A DNA stretch of 64,000 bases from Raillietiella orientalis (GCA_036172245.1 JAYWIR010000109.1:1-64000), one strand, 5' to 3'. Positions 1 to 40,388 are shown, numbered from the stretch's first letter. Made by a program: numbers and translations. Notes: generated by a model from the letters alone, not told the origin.

Positions 1-3000
1 GATCCGGGAGTGGTGAGGATATCCTCCTTGCCAACGTTCTTGAATTCCTCGCAGCGTATGCTGTTTCCTCCTGCAGGTGGGTTCGATGGTAAACCATTCT
101 TCTTCTCGACCTTGCAGCGCAGTCATCGGACCTTTCGAGTTGCTTATCAACAACGAATAGGTTTTTTGCGTTGCATATGGCAAGTCGTCCCAATGAGCAG
201 CAATATCCAGGAGGTGTCGCGTTTCCATAATCTCCATGGAGTTTTCCACCGACTTCATCCCGGAACCGCCTTCCTTCTTTGGATGACATAAGGGTTTCAG
301 TCTGACCCTCGGTCGGTATCCACCTTAAAGGGTTTTTCTCTGCTACTTGTCCACTTCTCTGCGGGTGTTTTTGTCCAATCTGCTAATGGCCGTTCCAAAG
401 AGTATCTTTGGAAGGAGTACTCCGTTCCAAAGATTAGCTCTCAGCTTCATGTTACACCATCTCGATATACCGGAGTATACGAGAATGGTGAAGGTAACCT
501 CTTCTCTATTCCTGGATTCTTTGCAAGGTAACTCTGGGCCGCTGGTATATCCAGCTCCTCGTGTCCGGGGGCACTCGGAGCATCCAGGGGATCACCAGCA
601 TGTATTTCTTCTGCCAGGGTTCCTTGCTTCTAGGGACGATCTTCAGTTAGTGCTTCCGCACCAACTGTTGTTTCCTTCTCCAGGTGGGATCGATGGTCAC
701 CAAACCCCTGCTAGGCTTAGTAGTGCAGTCTTCGGACCCTTCCAGTTGTTTAGCAACAACGAGTAGGCCCTGTGCGCCGCATAAGACCAGTCGTCCCAGT
801 GAGCAGCAATATCCAGGATTTCTCTCGTATCCATGATTTCCACGGAGTGGCCCTCCGCTTCATGTTGAAGTCCGTCCGCGTGTACTTTGTTGCTTCCTCT
901 GCTGTCTTCCCCAGGATTTCGGTCCATAACAGCTTCGACGCGGAGTCTTCGAGGATATGGACTCCCAGGTACTTGGCGTTGTCCACCGTTCGGAGTCCTC
1001 TCCCCGTGAGTGCGGAGAGATCCAGGATTCTGACGGGCAAAAGTTGGCTCTTCTAGGATTGATTCTCAAGCCCAATCCTTCTTCCATCAGCTCCACCACA
1101 TCCAGAAACACATGTTGATCTTGTTTTTCCTTGATGAAGAAGAGATCGTCCGCGTAAGCCAGATGGGTGAGCTTCTGGTCGTCGATGGTGATCCCTCGAA
1201 GGCGTCCACTTCTCTCGATGAAAGATGAGAGAGCCTCCATGTAGATGATAGACAGCATAGGACTCGGCGAATCTCCCTGGCGGACTCTCGTTCCATCCGG
1301 ATAGCTGGTATTTCCTCTCCATTGATCTTCATGAAGTGTTGCTCGTCGAGTATCATCCTCATGAAGGTGCTGAAGTATTTCGGGAGGCCCAGTTTTCCTA
1401 GAATCTTCAGCAGCATCTCATAGTCAATGGTATCGAAGGCCTTCTCCATGTCAGTGAACACCAGCACCAGGTTCTCGCCGACGTATCGGCTAAGTCCCAC
1501 GGTGGCCTGGACACACTTGACATTTTCCGACATATGACGTCCGGCACCGCGCATGTCTGGAACGGAGAAATTAGCTTCGCCATGACCTTGCCTAAGCGGT
1601 TGGCCCAGATCTGCGCCAACCACTTGGCATCAGAGTTGGGGACTGAGATTGGCCTCCATTGGGTAACCTTGGTCAGGTCACTTCCTTTCGGCAACAATCT
1701 CATCCTACTCTCGTAGAAGGATGCAGGTAGTCTTCCTTCTTGTCGGATGCAGAGGGTCAGCTGGTGGAACAAGCGCAGGTAGGCGTACAGTTACCGCTGA
1801 CAGTGCCTGATGGAGACACGGTCAGGGACTGCCGCCACATCCTTGCGTAGTTCCGAGAACGCCGCCTTCACCTCGTCTTCGGAGAAGTCCTCTTCGACTT
1901 TGTTCCGTTAGAGCTCGTCGATTTTCTTGCCGATGGTTTTCAAAAAGGCGTTTTGTGTCGCCGGACACGGATGTTGCCGCCGAAAGTGTTTCGTGTAGTG
2001 CCTTTGAAAGACGATGTTTTCCGACGTGTGCCGGCTGTGGCCGTCGTACTGGACACAGAAGATGTCCGTTGCCAGATTTTTCTTCTCCAGCACGCCGACT
2101 TCCCCTTTGATGTTCTTGAAGACCTACTGCCTCTCGTACTGTTCCCAGTACTTGGAAAGGGAACGATCTTGGATGTTCTGCTCTCGGTACGCTTCTTGCC
2201 TGAGTCGCTTGTCCCCATACTGCATGTTGCAGAATAGATGGACGCGATGCTTCAGACTGTCCCAGTCGGCGACTCTGTTAATGGTGGTGGTCTTCAGAAT
2301 CGCCTCGATGACTTCCTGATGACAGGGAAGCATCTCGAACCAGGTGGGCATGCAGATGAGCACCTCCCTTGTGTTCTGCTTCCGCCGAGGATTTTCCGTC
2401 CTTAGGGAAAACCGCACCAAAAGGTGGTCGGACACAGGGTCGGACACAGGGTCACGAAAACCTTGAATGCAGTTCCCTTTTCGATGCTGCGAAAGACGTG
2501 TTCGATCGGCTTGTGGCTAGCTGTTCGCCACAGAAGTCCGAACTCGTCGGACAGCCGTCGATACGCTGTTCTGCCTCTGGCGTCCTGGGAATGGGTGATT
2601 TCAACCAGGATATTCAGATCGCCTGCAACCATCACGATGTCCTTGGGTGCGACCTTTTCTCGCAGAGCTGCATGTAGAGCTTTCTCACACCGATGTTTTT
2701 GCTTGTGTGGTCCGTACACGCTCATCAGAAAGAGGTGAATAGTAGCGGACCAGGACAGTCGTACGCCGAGTATTCGTCCCGGCATGAGACAGACTTCCAG
2801 GATTGTGGGGGCCAGCTCGTTCTTTACTACCATCGTCACTTCCTCTGTGTTTCTCTGTCCCTCGCTGACGATCATTTGGGTGTTCAGGCGACGTTCCATT
2901 TCTAGGCTCATCTGATGACCCAACCTGTGGGCCTCTTGAAGACACACGATATCTTGATGTGCGATGGTCCGCACAATCCTTTTTCGTTTTTCCTGTCGAT

Positions 3001-3063
3001 TAGTCCATTGACATTCCAGGAGGCGATCTTGATCCTCCTGGCGGTGGACAAGGACGAGACCAT
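1..3063 (-). pseudogene. Retrotransposon ORF2 remnant (APE endonuclease and reverse transcriptase)
   Basis: ATG at 3063 reads MVSSLSTARRIKIASWNVNGL and overlaps the ORF1 end. Endonuclease motifs at ~2400-3030; RT motifs at ~950-1770 with YADD near 1146-1157. Multiple frameshifts. Confidence 0.92.
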
Positions 3064-4930
3064 AAAGGGGTTTTTATTTCTTCGCCTTCCTTAGCTTCTT
3101 CTGACGAGGAGACAGCTGGAGTCTCCCGGAAGAAGAAGGCTTCTCGCTGCCGGCGTCGCTCTCCGGTGAAGTCCGTAGATTCGACCTCCTCGGTGGAATG
3201 TTCCGCCTTTGCGATTGTTTTGCGTAAGAGCGTCTCCAGGCTCACCATCGCACAGTAATTCGCCTTGACGTCGAGAAGCTTGATCTCCAGCTTCTCGCAT
3301 TCGGCCGCTTCCACGAGTTGATTTATGTCCTCCTGCACCTCACAGATTCGCCGCAGGAGTTGTTCCTGCTGCTCCCCGCTTGGTTCCTGTCGGGCTTGTT
3401 CCGTCAGCTTCGCCACCTCTTCGGTTATTTGCAGGGTTTCTTGCGTCACTGGGGCTCCGCTACCTCCATTTTCTTGCCTTCCTCTGCAACTTCTGGTATT
3501 TGCGGCTTTTCGGAGGGTTCTTGCTCCTTGGTGAGCAACCTCCTCTTGCCCTTTGCTCACTTCAACGAAGCTGTCCGCAGAATCTGGAACGACCTCCCCC
3601 GCCTTCCTCGGCCTTTCTACTTGCTTTTGAGGATGTTCGTCCCCCTCCTTCAGAATTTTCTCCTGCACGGGGGAGAGCCCTCGTATGGTACGCCGATTGG
3701 CGTACTCCGGGCAGCTCCACATCGCGTGCCCCGGAGCCTTGCAAAAGGCACACACCTCACTCAGGTTCTTGGTAGTTTCACACTTGGTGCCCATGCTTGG
3801 CGCAGCGGAAGCACCAAGATCGCGGACAAGCACTGACCCTGTGGCCAAAGTGTTTGCATCGTGTACAGAATGCCGGTTGTTGTCGGTATCTGACATAAAC
3901 CTCCTGGGAGTCCCCGTCGACGTGGGCGAGTCCCGGAATCTTCGTCTCCTCGAAAAGCTTAATTTTTGCGACGGCATCGCCGGAGAACACCTTTCTGGAG
4001 TAGTTCTGGAACTCCAGATCCAGAACTTCCCCGTACTTGGCGAGGAAACTCCACGCCGTTTGCTTGCTGGTGGTCACGCAGACACCACCCAGAAACACCG
4101 TCGTATACGGCATTTCTCCGATGCCGCGAACCAATTCCCTGAATATTTATGCCCTTTTTGATTAGGGCCTCGATGAGGGGTTCACTGTCGGTATACAGCG
4201 TGAACCCCGTCGTGCTTGGTATCTCTTTGCGGCCTTTTGGCTAAGATCAAAGTGTGGCTTAGGACATGGGGCTTGGACATGGTCGAAGTCCACGTTCTCC
4301 TTGTAGAGGGCTAAATACACCTCTTTGATGTTATTTATGCGGATTAATCCCGTCTTGAATGTAACCGGCTTCACGTTTGGCCCTATGCGAACCATGGGCT
4401 CTTCAACATTTTCCACTTTCCCTCTTTCCGGCTTTCCAAAAGTGCGTTGCGGCTGGGCGTTGGAAATTGTCCGCCGCCACCGCCGCGTACGAGAATGGCC
4501 ACGTTGCCCTAGACGCACAAGATGGCGTCACATCCTCCGAACTCACCGCCACGTGGGAGGTCCTAGGTCGCGCCGCTGGCTCCGCCGCGAGCGTAACCCG
4601 TGACGACGCCGTCGCACAATCGCCGGACGCTACCCCCATCTGCTGGGGTGGCATCGGCCTCTCCTCCACCTACTGCTCCGCTTGCATCCTAGCAGCGGGT
4701 TGGTGAACTCCTGCCGCCGATGTGGGATGCAAGTCCACCGTGGAACCGCTGCTGCTGCTGCTGGTGGTGGTGGTGTAAGTCCTCCCCTGCACTCTCACTG
4801 GTGGGTGAGAGGAGTCACAGTCACTTCTCACTGCCTTTGGGTTGGGCGTTTGCCCGCTCGGGGCACACAAAAATTGCCGCGGCAGTGGTATTACATACTG
4901 CCTTGGAGGAGTATTGGGTAAAGTTTTCAA
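3000..4930 (-). pseudogene. Retrotransposon ORF1 remnant (RRM-like region, three CCHC zinc knuckles, coiled-coil-like tail)
   Basis: ORF pieces 4670-4930, 4403-4669, 4162-4518, 3778-4134 (CTRCKHFGHRVSAC, CFRCAKHGH) and 3000-3977 (CAFCKAPGHAMWSC), split across frames. Confidence 0.85.
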
Positions 4931-5579
4931 CTAGCAATAACCGCGCCTCCCTTTCGTTCAGCGGCCGCGATACTGCCCGTTCCATTTCTCGCCAATTCTC
5001 TTGTGCTTCACTGCCCTTCGTTCGTGTCGCCTCCCCTGTCGAGCACAGGACTCGATTCCTCCCCCTCGCGCGGTGGCCACGCGCGCCGCCCGGACAACGG
5101 CATCCCCTGGACTGCCCGCAGCAGCTTATTCCTGCCGCGTGTTCACCTTTGTTCGTCGCTCAGTCGCATCCCTGGTGCGGTCAGGCTGCGGTCCCACGCA
5201 GAGGAAGAGATCCGGTTTTCCATGTCGCTCTGCGCCTCGAGCTTCCTCGTTTTCCTCCATCTGTAAGAGTAGCTCGGGATGCTGGGTGATTCTGGAGCTG
5301 CGGCTAAGCGCTACGAACCGGGGAAGAAGGAAGGAAACTCGTCAGTCTTAGGGATACGAATCCGATCTTCACCCTGGGAATCTGCTGTGCTAAGAAACGA
5401 GAGGATGGTCGAGATGTGGCAGCTCCCGTTTCCGTGCTTTCCCCTTGGACTTGAGGAAGAGATGGGGAAAGGCACGCCGAGTGAGAACTCAGGGAGAGCT
5501 GAGGTTCGCCGAGGGGTCCAGAGCAGGCGCTCTCGGCTAGTGAACCCGAGATGTCAACCCGATTTCGAAAGATCATTGT

Positions 5580-6209: not shown

Positions 6210-6328
6210 GTTTACGGCCACACCACGCTGAAAGCACCGTCTCTCGTTCGATCGGCGAAGTTAAGCAGCGTCGGGCCCGGTCAGTACTTGGATGGGCGAC
6301 CGCCTGGGAACCCCGGGTGCCGTGAACG
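6210..6328 (+). rRNA. 5S rRNA: 5S ribosomal RNA gene (single copy in window)
   Basis: GTTTACGGCCACACCACGCTGAAAGCACCG...GAAGTTAAGCAGCG...AGTACTTGGATGGGCGACCGCCTGGGAA...GTGCCGTGAAC, ~119 nt. The 5' GTTTACGGC pairs with the 3' GCCGTGAAC (helix I); box A and box C are recognisable. Confidence 0.97.
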
Positions 6329-21313: not shown

Positions 21314-23331
21314 ATGTCGGCGACCTTCACGGTGGAGGCGCTCATACGAGGGGACACCGAGCGTGTGGCCTGGCTGCGGCGGCGCCAACAACAGCCTTGC
21401 GGCGGCGGCACCGAGGTCGGCAGCAGCGTCTTCCCCATCGGGGAGTTTCCCGTCCGCGTCCCGGAGGGCGCGTGGTGCCGTAGGCGATCCTTCCCGCCCG
21501 CTCCGGTGCCAGCAAGCTCCCTCCCGCCCTTCGCTTCGCCGCCTTTTTTCTCCGGTTGCTGCACCCTGCCCTTCTCAGGCAGCTTCTTCGAGGGAAGTCC
21601 CGCCGGCTCTCGAGCGCGCACACCATCCATCTCGGGCTACCTCGGGAAGCGAGCCGCCGGCGGCAAGGAAGATGACCCGACCGACCGTGAGTCCGACCTC
21701 TTTCTTTGGGTTTCCTCCCGCGCGTGGACCGGGTGGCCGAAGGGCGTATCCCCGTCCGGGACAAGCCCTGCTGGGACGAGAGATTCGAAGACACGCGCCG
21801 CCCGAGAAGGCGCCTCTCCTTCGGAAGTCTTCCTGGTCCAGCCTGCCCTCCCTCCGGGCCCATTTCTTCCCCGGGAGAACTCTCCTGGTTCCTGACGGGC
21901 CGCCGCTGAAAAGGAAAATTTCAGGCAGCGGTTAAGGTGCGCGAAATGCGAAGGGGTAGAGGGTAAGGTGGAGTCGCGTAGGGTGAGGACGGGAGTGAGG
22001 AGAAAGGTGGGAGCGTGGGCATGGAAACGTCGGACAGCGGAGACAGTGTTGTGATGAGAGGGCAAGCGCCTTCCTGGAGAAAAGTGTGTTTCGAGGCCTC
22101 AGAGAGGGAATGCGTCGGGGGAGCAGAAGGTGGCGCAGGGTGCCAGCAGGAGCGCTTCCCTTCGCAGGAACCTCGCGGGCTCGTACCAACCTCGAAAACC
22201 CTGCGGATCCCCGTCCTCTCGTCGAACGTCCAACGACATTGTCCAGCATCCCTGTGAGAGAAGGAAGAAGCAGCCCGTCAGCTATCAGGTTCGGGCGGCG
22301 TCCCCTCTCGGTTCAAGAATCTCCGGGATGAGTCCCCGCCAGCGGAACCCTGATGGCCACGGGGGAAAAAAAGGGTTTTGTCTTCGGCTTGCTACGGGGT
22401 GCGGTCGATCGGTGGGATGCGGGGAAAGAAGAGATGAAGGAGGAAGGGAGGAAGAAGATAGAGAGAGGAAGGGGAGGAAAGGAGGAAGAGCATCCGTCCG
22501 CCGCTGCCATTTCCGGTGGAGGTTGTTGCGGGTACCCGGCATGGCGCCCTTGTCGCACCTCCAAACGCCGTGAGAATGCGCTGGAAATCCTCCCATCATA
22601 GGGGCGCGCTTACCAGCAGGAACCCCAGAGGACGGACGGTCTCTCTCCGCTCGAGCCCCCCCAATCCTCCAATGCTGCCTGACCTTTACGCACTTCGGAA
22701 GGCCGGTCTCCGCATTGCTGCACTCCCCATTCCTCGCCTACGCCTGCGTCTCCACCGAACATACTCCTGTCTCCGTTTACCCCGCGCAGGGCCCTCCTTC
22801 GTCAGCAGCTTGAAGGCTGTCCTTGTCCACGAAAGCCCAGAAGGAAAGGGGGGATGGAGTGGGGAAGCACGCTGTGGATCACGTGATCTTTCTCTTCCAG
22901 CTCCCACGCCGGCCATCGAGTCGAGCTGCAAGAGGAACCGCACAGCCTTCAGCAGCGTGCAGCTGCTGCAGCTGGAGCGGGAGTTCTCCTCCAACATGTA
23001 CCTCACCCGCCTGCGGCGCATCGAGATCGCCAACTGTCTCGACCTCTCGGAGAAACAGGTCAAGATCTGGTTCCAGAACCGCCGCGTGAAGCTCAAAAAG
23101 GAAGGGGTCGCGCCGACCTCGGCCTCTTCTCGGGATTACCCTGAGGTCGCTGGATGCACCTGCCGCCTCAGAGCGCTGAGGGCAAAGGACGCCAGACCCA
23201 CGACCACTAGGTTGGCGGACGACAGGGAAGAGGGAAAGCCGCCTTCCCCGGAGGGAGCAGGAGGTCTTCGGAATCCACGTCCCCCGATCCTCATTCCCAG
23301 TACACCGGACCGCGTCCCAGAAGGCGGATGA
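21314..23331 (+). CDS. Gsx: Gsx/ind ParaHox homeobox transcription factor; simplest model exon 1 21314-21686 + exon 2 22901-23331 (~267 aa); an in-frame acceptor at 22790 could add sequence
   Basis: N-terminal [11 protein letters not shown] matches the Gsx MSRSFxVDSLI repressor motif. Homeodomain [59 protein letters not shown], followed by the CxC motif (GCTC). GTGAGT donor at 21687 and ttccAG acceptor at 22900 are both phase 1. Confidence 0.93.
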
Positions 23332-33880: not shown

Positions 33881-36800
33881 ATGCTGACCACCAAAACTTT
33901 TATGAGAAAGACTCGTAGAGGAAACGTGCTAAAAATTGTGCGAGAACATTACTTAAGAAATGATATTTGGTGTGGATCTAAACTGTGCAAAGATTGCCCT
34001 CAAGATAAGTGTGTATTAGAAGCGAACCCCGTCTCTGATTCAGATTTAATTGTTCATCCACACTACATAGTTCTGGATACCAATGTTATACTTCACCAGG
34101 TATTCAGGAAGTAATTGAGTATTTGAAAATTTTGTTATTCACAGAGGGACATTATCGAATCATACGTACTGAGAAATGTCATAATTTTTCAAGTTGTATT
34201 GGAGGAAGTTAAAAAAAGAAGTATCCCTGCATATCAAGCAATAGCAAGTGTAATTAGTAACCCAGATTATAGGTTTTTTGTTTTCATCAACGAGCACCAT
34301 AAGTAAATATATAGATTTAAAGAGGAATTTTATGCTGTTTCGTTTCTAGAGAAACATATATTGAAAGAATCAAAGGAGAATCTGCAAATGATAGGAATGA
34401 TCGTGCCATTAGAACAGCATGCCTTTGGTACAAAAATCATTTGTGCCAAAATGGGAATTCAGCTGTTGATATAGTGCTTCTGACCAATGATGCCTTGAAC
34501 AAGGAAACAGCTTTGAAAATGGGTTTATGTACTCTGACAGGTAAGGTGGGGAGTGGGGTGTTTTCATTTCTGGTAAAATCTGTGAAGTGGAAGAATATGT
34601 GAACAGCGTAGCACACAAACATCCTGACATAGTGGATAAACTGAATCGAGCTGAAGATGAAAAGCATGTGGTCTCCATTAATCAGCACAATCTCTATCCT
34701 GAGCACTTGTCACTTAGCAGGATGCATGAGAAACTTAAAACAGGCACTGCTTACCAGGGGGTATTCCATTCAAGTCGAGATAATTACTTGGAAGGCAGTG
34801 TCAGTGTGGAAGGCCAGGATCAGGATGTAAGAATTGGGGACACATGATTCACATTTGGGAAAGATCCTTATACAAGGGCTCTTGAATTTGAATCGAGCTG
34901 TACATAATGATGTGGTTGTTGTGGAGCTGCTTGTCAAAGAAGAGTGGTCCCGTCAAAGTGATATTGTGTTGGATGATGAGGTGGAGGATCCAGGTAAGCA
35001 CAGTTAACTTCAGTTCAAGGCATCATCTTCCCATCAGAGGGAGGCGTCCTGGAAAAAGAAGTTTTGTTTAAAAGCTCTTCAAAACAAGGATCATGTCAGC
35101 CTACTGGTCGTATTGTTGGCATCATAAAGCGTCGTTGGAGACCCTATTGTGGAGTGTTGCAGCCTTGTGCTCTGCCTAGGGCTACACGACATTTGTTTGT
35201 GCCTGTTGAACGGGGAATACCCAAAATTCGCATCGAAACACATCAGGCTGAATGGCTCAAAGGTCAGAAAATTGTGGTCACCATTGATGCATGGCCACGT
35301 TTCTCCAGATATCCACAGGTTGATAGTCAATTGGTGTACAAGTGATGCATCTTTATATTTCAGGGCCATTATGTACGAGCACTAGGCAAGATTGGAGAAA
35401 AGGAGACAGAAAGCGAATTGTTGCTTCTAGAGCATGATGTACCCCATGGCACTTTTTCAGAAGCTGTGAAAGCTTGTCTTCCTAGTTTGCCCTGGGAAAT
35501 TCCTAATGAGGTACTCCATCTTTTTTTATTTGGGGATTTAGACCTGAGATTCATGCAATTCGTTAACCAATTCGTTCATTGCATGAGTAATAGTGGATGC
35601 TAGATCACTAGGGAAAAGGGAAAGGGTTGCACTATTTTCATCTAGGCTGAATAAGTTGGAGGCTGTTGGGAAATTGTTTCCATTTAGAGGTTCATGCTGA
35701 GGTTCCATCAGGGACTGGATGCTGGAATAGTTGCTGTCTTCTGGTTCTGCCGCTCTACCATGTGGGCTCATGCATGTCGGAGACAAGTATCCCATTTGAT
35801 AGCTTCCAGCTAAAGATGCAGCAGGAATAGCTGGATTGGAAAACAGGCTAGAGTCAAGCTGGATCAGGTTGTTGTTGAAACTGAAATGCTCCAAATCACG
35901 GGGGTATTGTGAGAAAGAGTGACAAGTGAAGTTGTTATTCTCATCTTTAAGTTGCTCAGAGTGCAGTGAGGGTTGATTCATGAGTTTGTTGTATGCAATC
36001 TTTGAAGGTCGTAAATGAAATGGTGTATTTGCTCCAGAAGGTGAGTGGGCATTTGATGGCACAATGGTGATGAAGGTTGTCTTTTGCTGTTTTTCTGTCT
36101 CGTTGCAGGGTGAATCTTTGAAAGAATTTTCGATTGCAGGTAGCCCACACGGAGCCAGGGTGGTTTGACCATTATTTGCCTGCTGTCTTCCTTCAAGCTG
36201 CCTAATCCTTCGACGTAATAGGAGCTTGAGGCAGTTTTGAGTTTCGGTTTTCTGATGTAAATCATGCAGTAGGTTTTCCAAGGTTGCTAAGTTGGGACTA
36301 TGTTTCAGTTTTTGCCATCTCTGCCACAGTGCTTTATCATGTTGGTGGAGCATTGACTCAATCTCAGTGGTTTCTAAGATTTTATGTTTTCCCTGTATTG
36401 TTTGTTACACTATGTACCTTTGTGAGTGAGTTCGGTGCACAGTCTTCCAGTTTCTTCTTTGTCCTTTTCAACTGCCACGGTTACTTGTTTTATCCGCCTG
36501 ATATTGGCTTGGGAAGCACGTACTTCATCGTACAAATGAACGAGCTCATTTACGTTAGCTCTGAGTTTTTTTTTCCATTTCCTGCAGGAATCCAGTAGGT
36601 GATAGTAACAGATCTGTACTCACGCTTCCTTCTGGTGTTCTCTGTTGAGGGCAGTGATTAGGTAACGGTTGTACTCGACGATTTCGCCCATCATTTCCAG
36701 AAAGCATCTCAGTTTTTCCTCTCCATTTACTTCCTCCAAACTCTTTAATATTTGCATGACTTCGAGTGTTTCCTTCGTTTCTGGCAGATTGAATGCTTCC

Positions 36801-39800
36801 GAACTTGACGGATTTAAGGCAGGACTGGACCCTTCGGAAACACCACCAGCGTTCTGATATGACATCTTGTGAGACACCCACGTCTCTGGGATATTTTTCC
36901 GGCCCTGTTTCTCCTTAGCCTTAGCCATGGATTAGTAAACCCGAGTCGTTGAATGCTGCCGGTAAAAGGGTTTACTCACGAGGCTGCTCTTACTGTGTTC
37001 CTTGGAGAAATTTCCTTTGAAGTACACAATCTCGGCGCTTTGGTCGGAACGGTTTATCAGTTTGTCGATGAACTTTTTTATCTGACCCTTCTTTGTTATT
37101 GGTAAGGTTTTAGGTTTTTCCTTTGCTTGTCCCTCAGCCTGATCGTCCGTGTAGCGTTCTGTGGATACACGATGGTGCACGATAAGTTTCCCCAACAACC
37201 ATAGCATTCGGACTCCCGGCTCGTGTTAGCCCCCTTGGTCTGGAACGAGCTGCATGAACCGTTATTTTTGTTACCTTCATCACCGTTGTGCCTTCGGTTT
37301 TTGCCGCCATCAGGCTCAAGTGGTGTGCCCATGGATCGGGTGATGTGCGGGTGTGCGACTTCAACACTGGGAATTTAATTGTGAATTTGGCGATAGGTGC
37401 GGGGGCGTTTCGGCCGCTGGCTTTTGGAATTCTAGAACCGAGCGTGTTTCTCGAGCGCATTGTTAGTGTCGTGCGCCCGGGGCGGGTGATTGTAGTGCAT
37501 ATTGATCGTGCCCGGTGTTTTGGACCGACCCGGTGTGTGCACGTGGTCAAGTGGTCGTCGGTGGGTGTGCGCCGCCACAGCTCCTCAACGTAAAGCACGT
37601 TGTTGCCGTGGCTCGTGTCCATTCGTGGTGGCGTCACGGTGGAGTGACTCCTCCCTCTCCGCCGGGGCAGCTCGTGGCCGGAGGTGGCCAGAGTGAAAGC
37701 GAAAGTTTTGCCCGATGCAGTTGTGAAGCGGAAGCCGCTCCTCCGACCAAATTGCTGCCCTCAGCCACGAGCCGTGCGTGCACTGGGTCTGCACTGACTG
37801 CTAAATGAGCGCCTGATGATTGAATTAGGCCGGCCTGGAATGGACACGTTCCAGTCGCGCGTGCCGACTCGTGCGAAGCGCGGTTCGTCGAGTTTCTCCA
37901 TCTGCTTGCAAATTCCCCGTCGTCCGGTCGTTTTGCGTCACCTTCGCGGATGGTGGTCGGGGTGAAGCAAGCGTGTCGTGTGTCAAGGCTGCACGCGGTT
38001 GTATGTTGTCGACGTTATGCAGGACAAGGACCGCAAATCCGCAGCGTTGGGGGAGTGTCTCAGCCGTCCCAGCTGGGTAACTGCCTCCGTTCCTGACCAA
38101 GGGAAGGTCGTTGTTCCCCCGAAACGGAAGAGAGCGCTTGCTTTTGTTTTCGTTTCTTTGTATCTGTTGTTCCCCTCGGACGTGTTTCTCGGAGCGGGGC
38201 ATCTCTGGAAGTGTCTTCAGTTGGCACCTTCCTTTGCCGATTCGGTGAGTCAGGAAGAGTCTAGCTCATCCTGGCTCATCGCGTCTCAGACATCTAAGGT
38301 GTGAACTTACCCCGTAAGCATCCTCGTGGTCCATCCGTAGAATCGCCAGCTCCCACTGCGCTCCGTCATCTCCAGATGCGGCACCTCATGCTCGCGCGCG
38401 CGTCCATGAGCTCGAAGACGGAGGAAACACGGCTATCGTGTGTGCTCCGTTGGTAAGGGCCAGTGGTCAGGTAGACAGACGGAGGGGGAAGGGGTTCTCT
38501 CGTCACCTCTTGTGCCCCCGGTTTCACCTTCTTCCGCTTAGGAACTGCTGCACCGGGAGGATTTCCGCGGCGCTGTCGTGTGCTCCGTCGATCCTCCAGG
38601 TTGCGTCGACATCGACGACGCCTTGCACTGCCGTCCCCTGGATGGCGGCGGATACGAGGTAGGGGTGCACATCGCGGATGTCTCCTACTTCGTACGCCCC
38701 GGATCGGCGCTGGATAAGGAGGCCGCCTCCAGGAGCACCACCGTGTACTTGGTCGGCCACCGCATCGATATGGTGCCCGGTAATTTCGCCCCAGAGGACC
38801 CCCGGACTGCACGCAAATGCGATTTCTGTTTCCTCCCTGTAGAAGTGCTCAGCGCCAACTTATGCTCCCTAAGGATGGGTGAGGACCGCCTGGCCTTTTC
38901 GTGCGTGTGGGAGATGACTCCCGAAGCGGAGGTGTGCAACACGAGGTTCTGCAAGTCCGTTATTAGGTTGGTTGGAAGACCAGGTGGATACGCACCCCAC
39001 CCTTCTTCCTTTCCATCTTTCCCACAGGTCGCGAGCATCCCTTACGTACAGCGAGGCCCAGCTGCGCATCGACGATCACAGCAGGTCGGATGAGATCACA
39101 GAGTCCCTGCGCATGCTCAATGGTCTGGCGAAGCAACTCAGGCAGCGCCGCCTGGAGCGCGGTGCGCTCGTGCTGGCGTCTCCCGAGGTGCGGTTCGAGG
39201 TAGATAGCGAGACCCACGACCCCGTCGACGTGGCAGCGAAGCAGCTCCTGGAGACCAACTCCCTGGTTGAGGAGTTCATGCTCCTGGCGAACGTGTCCTC
39301 GGCGGAGCGCATTCTGGAAGAGTTCCCAGACTGCAGCCTCCTTCGCCGTCATCCGAGCCCTCCCGTCTCCCACTTCGACCCCCTAGTAAAGGCTTCCCGC
39401 GTGCACGGCATCGATCTGATCGTGGACAGTGGGCTCGAACTCTCCCGGTCCCTGGACAAGGCCGTAGTTCCCGACAACCCCTACTGGAACACCCTGCTCC
39501 GCCTGCTCGCGACGCGGTGCATGCTGCCCGCGTCGTACTTCGTCAGCGGACTCCTTCCCCGGGAAGAGTACTTCCATTACGGACTGGCCTGCCCCGTCTA
39601 CACCCATTTCACGTCACCCATCCGCCGCTACGCTGACATCGTGGTGCACCGCCTCCTGGGCGTAACCGTCGGCAGCGGGAACATCACCCCGGTCCTTCTG
39701 GACAAGAAGGCGATGCAGGAGTTGTGTACGAATCTCAACTACCGCCACCGCATGGCGCAGCACGCCGGCAGGGCGTCCGTGGACCTTCATACCAAGGTCG

Positions 39801-40388
39801 GTGATTCGCCTGTCTCCTCCCACCTTCCCCTGCCCTACCCACAGTCATCCTTCTCCCCTTTGATATCGCCATCTCCCGCTCTTCTCTCTGTCTCTCCCCA
39901 CCACCACCAGCAGCACTTGTGCGCCCTTCCCACACTTTCCGCATTTCTTTCGGGCCCCGTTTTCCCAGCCTCATCGCCTTGCAGCTGTTTTTCAGGAACC
40001 GCCTTCAAGATGAGAACGCATACGTTTTCGGGGTGCGCAAGAACGCTCTCCAGATTTTCGTTCCCAAATACGGGCTGGAAGGACTGTTATTCCTGGATGC
40101 TCCTGAGGGAGGCGGCGGCGCGGCAGGGGCACCGGTCTTCGTCTTTGACGAGGACGAGCCTTCCCAGCGTTGTGGCGATGTCGTTTTCCGACTCTTCGAG
40201 CCGCTGCGCGTGCAGCTGAGCATCAAGACTTCGGACACGGGCATTCAGAAGCTGGTGGTGCAGCTGGTCGATCCGGAGGTAGGAGGAGGTTCGGAGCCAG
40301 GTGGAATACATCTGCCGCCGCTTTCCAGATCGAACGCTTCAGCGTGGAGCCCGCAAGCAACTCCCAGAAGAGGCAGAGGCTGTCGTAG
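33881..40388 (+). CDS. DIS3: Exosome catalytic subunit DIS3/RRP44, ~949 aa. Exons 33881-34099, 34145-34302, 34350-34540, 34588-34826, 34864-34993, 35038-35318, 35364-35510, 38542-38779, 38843-38966, 39028-39796, 39985-40278, 40329-40388
   Basis: MLTTKTFMRKTRRGNVLKIVREHYLR; CR3 cysteine motif; PIN motifs LDTNV, DRNDRAIR, LLTND; RNB motifs SVDPPGCVDIDDALH, GVHIADV, NSLVEEFMLLAN, HYGLA..YTHFTSPIRRYAD. All 11 GT-AG junctions are phase-consistent and total 2850 nt. Confidence 0.97.
35525..35530 (-). promoter_or_regulatory. Poly(A) signal AATAAA of the nested gene
   Basis: tttatt on the plus strand, about 8 nt past the nested gene's TAA. Confidence 0.65.
35538..37332 (-). CDS. Nested antisense gene in DIS3 intron 7; uncharacterised ~535 aa protein with a central helical/coiled-coil-like region and a Ser/Asn/Pro-rich tail. 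Exons 37332-37200, 37158-36980, 36919-36624, 36581-36418, 36373-35538
   Basis: Four GT-AG introns (41, 60, 42, 44 nt) join five ORF pieces into a stop-free 1608-nt frame. Intron 2 has a TACTAAT branch-like site. The start exon is the least certain part. Confidence 0.8.

Follow-up and report, generated by a model that had tools for sequence, protein, structure and literature searches.

Introduction

The closest described counterparts of the locus presented here are found in Drosophila melanogaster, in pairs formed by a nested gene and the gene that includes it (Lee and Chang 2013, PMC3814207; Assis 2016, PMC5174743). According to the first of these papers, nearly 10% of the genes of D. melanogaster are nested and 71% of the nested genes lie on the strand opposite to their host; compared with the genes that harbour them, nested genes show faster evolution, a younger age and narrower expression, often with a bias towards testis, and the pairs treated there do not overlap in their coding sequences or untranslated regions (UTRs). 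Here, we analyse a stretch of 64,000 nucleotides (nt) from Raillietiella orientalis (GCA_036172245.1 JAYWIR010000109.1:1-64000), which we refer to as the window, and in particular the single long intron of its DIS3/RRP44 gene, intron 7, whose minus strand carries a spliced open reading frame (ORF). We estimate the probability that this frame is a real protein-coding, intron-bearing gene, nested antisense in the DIS3 intron, at roughly 70%. The arrangement is that of an ordinary nested/including pair, antisense nesting being common in arthropods. As in the Drosophila pairs, a whole antisense gene with introns of its own is predicted within one intron of a conserved and widely required host, and the fast evolution of nested genes there fits the case of a gene without detectable relatives inside the conserved DIS3. 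Unlike those pairs, the nested stop codon and polyadenylation (poly(A)) signal lie only 28 and 15 nt, respectively, from the donor of DIS3 exon 7, and the pair is known here from sequence alone.

A second point of comparison is provided by taxonomically restricted, or orphan, genes, for which Weisman et al. (2020, PMC7660931) set out the argument of homology detection failure. The nested gene resembles orphan genes in that sensitive searches return no homologue and in that its predicted protein is helical and disordered and of low complexity, a type of sequence in which similarity is lost quickly. It is unlike an established orphan in that an absence of matches would be expected here even for an old gene, the nearest sampled DIS3 being only 68% identical in its most conserved exon.

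Results

A spliced reading frame on the minus strand of DIS3 intron 7

Three minus-strand stop-to-stop ORFs lie head to tail in DIS3 intron 7 (35511..38541), and two canonical introns can join them. The resulting model consists of exons 36928-36624, 36581-36418 and 36373-35538, which together give 1305 nt and a protein of 434 amino acids (aa); its coding region, 36928-35538, is contained entirely within the one host intron. Coding exon 1 (36624..36928, minus strand) begins at the ATG at 36928 and encodes residues 1-101 plus 2 nt of the following codon. It is separated by intron 1 (36582..36623, 42 nt, GTGAGT...CTGCAG) from exon 2 (36418..36581), which encodes residues 102-157 and shares its end codons with exons 1 and 3. 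Intron 2 (36374..36417, 44 nt, GTACAT...TCTTAG) is followed by exon 3 (35538..36373), which encodes residues 157-434 and closes with a TAA at 35540-35538. Both introns must be removed for the frame to be read through, because retention of intron 1 introduces an in-frame TGA at the donor, and retention of intron 2 shifts the frame and contains stops. At 42 and 44 nt, the two introns match the size class of the ten short introns of DIS3.

Sequence signals are present on both flanks of the frame. An in-frame TAA stands directly upstream of the ATG at 36928, and the preceding 271 nt contain no ATG in any frame, compared with 3.25 expected (P(0)=0.034). This ATG-free stretch (36929..37201, minus strand), beyond which the nearest ATG lies at 37202 and ends at 37200, likely represents a 5' UTR, with a promoter presumed nearby. 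At the other end, the stop codon is followed after 8 nt by an AATAAA poly(A) signal (35525..35530, minus strand), which lies at a distance of 15 nt from where DIS3 exon 7 ends. Cleavage normally takes place 10-30 nt downstream of AATAAA; at this usual spacing, the nested mRNA would end at the edge of DIS3 exon 7 or at most ~15 nt inside it. Such close abutment on a host exon is a little unusual.

Chance frame or coding sequence

Could such a frame have arisen by chance? On this explanation, the T-poor antisense strand of the intron simply stays open, as a chance or decayed frame that encodes no protein, and any transcript from it is non-coding. Several observations weigh in this direction and against a coding gene. 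The minus strand of intron 7 is T-poor throughout (plus-strand (T-A)/(T+A) of 0.22-0.25, as in the other DIS3 introns), which lengthens chance frames, and ORFs of 146-208 aa whose coding signal is slight or absent (p 0.32 and 0.047) are present on this strand where the intron is GC-rich. The codon-position periodicity of the nested frame is much weaker than in the 5' half of DIS3, which served as a positive control (chi-square 65.4), and is significant neither in any single nested exon (p 0.10-0.18) nor in the C-terminal tail alone (p=0.12). The Kozak context of the ATG at 36928, judged by reading the sequence, is poor, and no relative of the nested protein was found across all databases searched.

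Because strand skew lengthens chance ORFs, the length of the frame was compared with composition-matched sequence, using second-order Markov simulations (n=1000) of the same strand over a stretch of 1.85 kb. The observed lengths, 816 nt without splicing and 1305 nt when two introns are allowed, were not attained in any of the 1000 runs, in which the longest frames measured 807 nt and 1089 nt, respectively; a Gumbel tail gives p ~1-2e-4 per 1.85-kb stretch. A further point on the side of chance is that the same value, extended to both strands of the 64-kb window, corresponds to an expectation of ~0.01. Across the span of exon 3, the nested frame contains no stop, compared with 11-24 in each of the other five frames. 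The codon-position base bias of the whole nested frame yields a chi-square of 28.2, compared with a value of 10.6 +/- 5.1 when random frames are open (p=0.0025). Further evidence against a chance frame comes from its architecture: both breaks in the frame fall exactly in GT-AG units of 42 and 44 nt, one of which is bounded by a consensus GTGAGT donor and an acceptor of the pyrimidine-CAG type, no ATG occurs in the upstream stretch, the poly(A) signal is well placed, and the encoded protein has confidently predicted helices. Taken with the points on the other side, we consider a chance or decayed frame quite unlikely. The locus is likely an ordinary nested antisense gene of an unrecognised family, with support for a three-exon core of 434 aa.

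A likelihood based on DIS3 codon usage was also calculated (+4 for the nested frame versus -115 to -142 for the others) and discarded, as the other frames are penalised mainly for their stops.

Extent of the gene model

How far upstream does the gene extend? The initial annotation of the locus had described a five-exon minus-strand frame of ~535 aa with introns of 41-60 nt. We searched for the longest ATG-to-stop chain by dynamic programming, allowing up to four GT-AG introns of 37-70 nt. Limited to two introns, the search returns exactly the 434-aa model; with three or four introns it returns 508 and 519 aa, the latter being the longest chain. Splicing of the two further upstream exons would rely on weak sites (GTTTAC..CCAGAG and GTTCAT..CACGAG), and the third and fourth introns together gain 255 nt (from 1305 to 1560), compared with ~190 nt in random sequence. 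We thus did not retain the five-exon model of ~535 aa: its chain is not reproducible, and the longer chains obtained here depend on weak sites and gain about as much length as random sequence does. What stands of the earlier description is a spliced minus-strand frame, for which three exons, two introns (42 and 44 nt) and a product of 434 aa are supported; the frame upstream of the 60-nt intron shows no coding signal.

This last frame is a likely component of the five-exon chain and belongs to an alternative model, in which the gene is real and longer, with extra upstream exons, a start at 37207 or further upstream and a product of 507-535 aa. In the candidate extension (36920..37207, minus strand), an ATG at 37207 opens a frame of 76 codons, which a 60-nt intron (36979-36920, GTGAGT...CTAAG) joins in phase to the core to give 507 aa. 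This intron opens at 36979 with the consensus donor GTGAGT and contains a TACTAAT branch-like motif, and weak, purine-rich acceptors are also used in DIS3 introns 3 and 4. Set against this, the 76-codon frame lacks codon-position signal (chi-square p=0.20) and has no Pfam match, the 255-nt gain is close to that of random sequence, the 271 nt before the ATG at 36928 are ATG-free as in a 5' UTR, and a 535-aa chain could not be rebuilt. We regard a longer gene as unlikely, and the three-exon gene remains the preferred model.

The DIS3 host gene

The host gene was modelled from three-frame readings of the plus strand between 33850 and 40450. DIS3/RRP44 (33881..40388, plus strand) comprises 12 exons that encode 949 aa with PIN, CSD1, CSD2, RNB and S1 domains, as supported by the exon model, Pfam, alignment and named relatives. 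Its 11 introns, all GT-AG, measure 45, 47, 47, 37, 44, 45, 3031, 63, 61, 188 and 50 nt. According to Pfam, PIN corresponds to exon 3, CSD1 to exons 4-5, CSD2 to exons 6-7, RNB to exons 8-10 beginning with the fifth codon of exon 8, and S1 to exon 11. Exon 7 (35364..35510) holds the end of CSD2 and closes with the donor GAG|GTACTC; intron 7, the sole long intron of the gene, runs from GTACTC to GCTTAG; and in exon 8 (38542..38779) the RNB match begins four codons in. Intron 7 thereby separates CSD2 from RNB. The initial annotation had placed ten DIS3 introns at 37-188 nt and a seventh of 3031 nt just before the RNB catalytic domain, and the model agrees on all of these points, including the exact boundaries of the long intron.

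Thrips DIS3 (P0007) aligns with residues 1-946 of the 949-aa model at 59% identity, and the alignment is free of gaps at the joint between exons 7 and 8. This indicates that intron 7 is a true intron and that the assembly is coherent across it. Rfam gave no match in intron 7 at gathering score, and none at E <= 1 over 35400-38650; a tRNA search of the intron found none, and its sole tandem repeat is one 20-nt unit.

Two of the short DIS3 introns, intron 3 (47 nt, 34541-34587) and intron 4 (37 nt, 34827-34863), have purine-rich acceptors (TGTGAAG and GGGAAAG) without a pyrimidine tract. Weak 3' splice sites seem to be tolerated by very short introns in the R. orientalis genome. T exceeds A on the sense strand of every DIS3 intron, with (T-A)/(T+A) of 0.09-0.29. 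Their G/C skew is +0.36 in introns 1-6 and flips to -0.33 in introns 8-11.

Base composition across the locus

DIS3 is compositionally divided. Exons 1-7 have a GC content of 0.33-0.47, with ~0.36 at third codon positions, and exons 8-12 one of 0.57-0.65, with ~0.80 at third positions. The change takes place within intron 7, a short way upstream of the ATG of the nested gene: a composition step at 36500..37500 separates an AT-rich, CpG-depleted left part from a GC-rich right part with normal CpG.

The ratio of observed to expected CpG is 1.09-1.14 at 37001-38000, 0.94 in the whole window and 0.93-1.04 in the 3' half of DIS3. It falls to 0.23-0.49 in a zone at 34001-36500, which takes in the 5' 2.6 kb of DIS3 with exons 2-7. 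It also extends over the 3' two thirds of the nested gene, including the greater part of its exon 3; nested exon 2 lies inside this zone and is not depleted (1.01). A CpG-rich region upstream of the nested gene (37340-38540) had been pointed out initially; it does stand out from the depleted flank, but it does not rise clearly above the CpG level normal for the window. We accordingly rejected a CpG-island promoter, since 1.09-1.14 is not clearly above 0.94 and the unusual part of the locus is the depleted zone. The latter looks like the footprint of past germ-line, 5'-biased gene-body methylation, as far as CpG content can tell.

Origin of the long intron

Nine of the other ten DIS3 introns measure 37-63 nt and one 188 nt, which suggests that the 3 kb of intron 7 probably arrived as an insertion. 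Neither terminal repeats nor a target-site duplication were found at its ends, where the best shared word is an inverted 7-mer. The coding part of the nested gene has a GC content of 0.41-0.46, and exon 3 an observed-to-expected CpG ratio of 0.26-0.39, like the neighbouring DIS3 exons; because of this shared composition, the nested gene looks long resident. That it is not a recent retrocopy, as initially proposed, is supported as far as sequence can show: two introns have to be removed to keep the frame open, the only trace of a poly(A) tract is a run of seven A after the poly(A) signal, and no duplications flank the intron.

An inserted intron raises the question of a captured mobile-element or viral gene, for example one of the coiled-coil Gag type or like ORF1 of a long interspersed nuclear element (LINE), which would have lengthened the intron on arrival. 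The extra 3 kb, set beside the short introns of the rest of DIS3, has the look of an insertion, ORFs for a LINE reverse transcriptase and endonuclease are present in the window at 863-3073, and LINE ORF1 proteins typically have a coiled-coil N-terminus. The initial annotation had named a match to a transposon protein as telling against its reading, and Pfam gave none: no mobile-element domain, be it reverse transcriptase, endonuclease, integrase, transposase or Gag, was found in the nested exons or the other intron 7 ORFs. The frame ends so close to DIS3 exon 7 (28 nt) that no ORF2 could fit downstream, it requires two introns, and the intron ends lack the repeats or duplications of an element. 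Neither blastn nor tblastx detected a second copy in the 64-kb window, no look-alike was found among the other indexed genome windows, and base composition and CpG depletion match those of the adjacent DIS3 exons. Capture of a mobile-element or viral gene is therefore very improbable, and we continue to treat the frame as an ordinary nested gene.

Predicted protein

The predicted product comprises at least 434 aa. Structure prediction with AlphaFold2 was run on single exons. Residues 1-50, rich in Ser, Ala, Lys, Glu, Gly, Asn and Pro, are predicted to be disordered, with a predicted local distance difference test (pLDDT) score of 40-49 for residues 1-40, rising to 67 at residues 41-50. They are followed by helices at residues 52-68 and 70-100 (pLDDT 94-97). 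Residues 102-157, encoded by exon 2, have the best heptad pattern of the protein (a/d score 0.40-0.60 across the covering windows), and residues 159-224 are helical (pLDDT 64-81). These predictions agree with the helical protein described initially. The helical region as a whole (~52-224) has few proline and glycine residues and is rich in Leu, Glu and Lys. Heptads scored simply by their a/d positions, a measure that is uncalibrated for coiled coils, reach 0.52-0.60 at residues 71-98 and 113-154. Residues 225-411, rich in Ser, Asn, Leu and Pro, are predicted to be disordered (pLDDT ~30) and lead to a terminal amphipathic helix at residues 412-431 (pLDDT 62-72), after which the chain ends in S-Q-V (residues 432-434). 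The tail is acidic, with a net charge of -12 over residues 231-434.

Two basic clusters are present in the protein, at residues 105 and 210. Its composition and short motifs make an adaptor or scaffold our best guess, in which the helical region would bind itself or partner proteins and short docking motifs would be located in the tail. The likeliest individual role, put forward tentatively and at odds well short of even, may be that of a nuclear co-regulator, as suggested by the basic clusters together with acidic-hydrophobic patches. That this assignment draws on composition and short motifs counts as a reservation. Two LxxLL motifs (188, 205) occur where ~0.5 would be expected by chance, a difference that is not significant, and they carry little weight.

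Homology searches and orphan status

All homology searches were made exon by exon and not with the full spliced protein. At E up to 1, Pfam returned only Nsp1_C for the three nested exons, with an E-value of 0.068 that is below the cut-off of that family. A word-seeded search of 5.8 billion proteins gave no match for exon 3 (targets of 152-485 aa) or exon 1 (178-2000 aa), and neither did a full HMMER search of exon 3 against 1.84 billion representatives. In the Atlas, exon 1 led to one arthropod cluster at 0.82, to be taken as a lead only, and exon 3 to nothing. Among PDB sequences the best E-values were 0.31 and 0.13, with no relative, and Foldseek with the exon 1 model found nothing in the PDB at E <= 0.001 (two rows near E 9-10). 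In metagenome contigs, 83 pattern matches were obtained, none of which was confirmed.

What can be concluded from these empty searches depends on how well the lineage is sampled, for which the most conserved DIS3 exon, exon 10, served as a control. Its best protein relative is 68% identical; identity with insects is 60-68% (at least 63% in all but two named insect rows) and with molluscs 63-65%. In metagenome contigs, 80 loci were kept for this exon, the best at 65% identity. Eight of these (L001-L008) are nearly intronless and have no intron at the site of intron 7; they are distant and thus uninformative about its history. With the nearest sampled DIS3 only 68% identical, a fast-evolving helical and disordered protein would escape detection. 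The nested gene thus shows no detectable homologue, as an orphan should, but homology detection failure would give the same result; the poor sampling of the lineage and the exon-by-exon searches leave the orphan label unproven, and the lineage-specific gene claimed in the initial annotation is not established. On present comparisons, the gene may be lineage-restricted, or an old gene that has diverged past recognition.

Other features in the window

Outside the DIS3 locus, a full-length U4 small nuclear RNA (snRNA) gene (4852-4989, minus strand, 64.1 bits) and a full-length 5S rRNA gene (6210-6328, plus strand, 103.6 bits) are 1.2 kb from each other within a GC-rich block beside LINE remains. 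The latter (863-3073, minus strand) match RVT_1 (E 5.3e-08) and the endonuclease/exonuclease/phosphatase family (E 7.7e-04, below the curated cut-off), and a 357-aa ORF without a Pfam family (3003-4073) is situated upstream of them. An ORF with a complete homeodomain (22462-23328, plus strand, Pfam E 1.1e-20) is found in a GC-rich stretch ~10 kb upstream of DIS3.

Discussion

If the three-exon model is correct, the nested gene would be transcribed on the minus strand from its own promoter within ~36950-37300. The transcript would be spliced twice, with the removal of introns of 42 and 44 nt, a size typical of this genome, and polyadenylated at the AATAAA, so that its 3' end would reach or slightly overlap the donor of DIS3 exon 7. 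As the nested gene abuts a host exon, the two transcripts may touch.

The gene could have arisen or become fixed in the DIS3 intron in this lineage and be functionally coupled to DIS3: with a transcript that ends at, or overlaps antisense, the donor of exon 7, its transcription or 3'-end formation could tune the splicing or output of the host. DIS3 is the exosome nuclease that removes antisense and read-through RNA, and such coupling, if true, would place a young gene in a feedback loop with the machinery of RNA decay. We consider this a long shot.

Viewed as an ordinary nested antisense gene, the locus is useful for annotation and not surprising, since antisense nested genes are common. It also illustrates the weakness of an orphan call in an unsampled lineage, in which the DIS3 control has nothing closer than 68%. 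If the gene is real, it would account for the presence of one DIS3 intron that is ~50 times longer than most of the others, and it would add one more fast-evolving protein of an unrecognised family to an arthropod-type genome.

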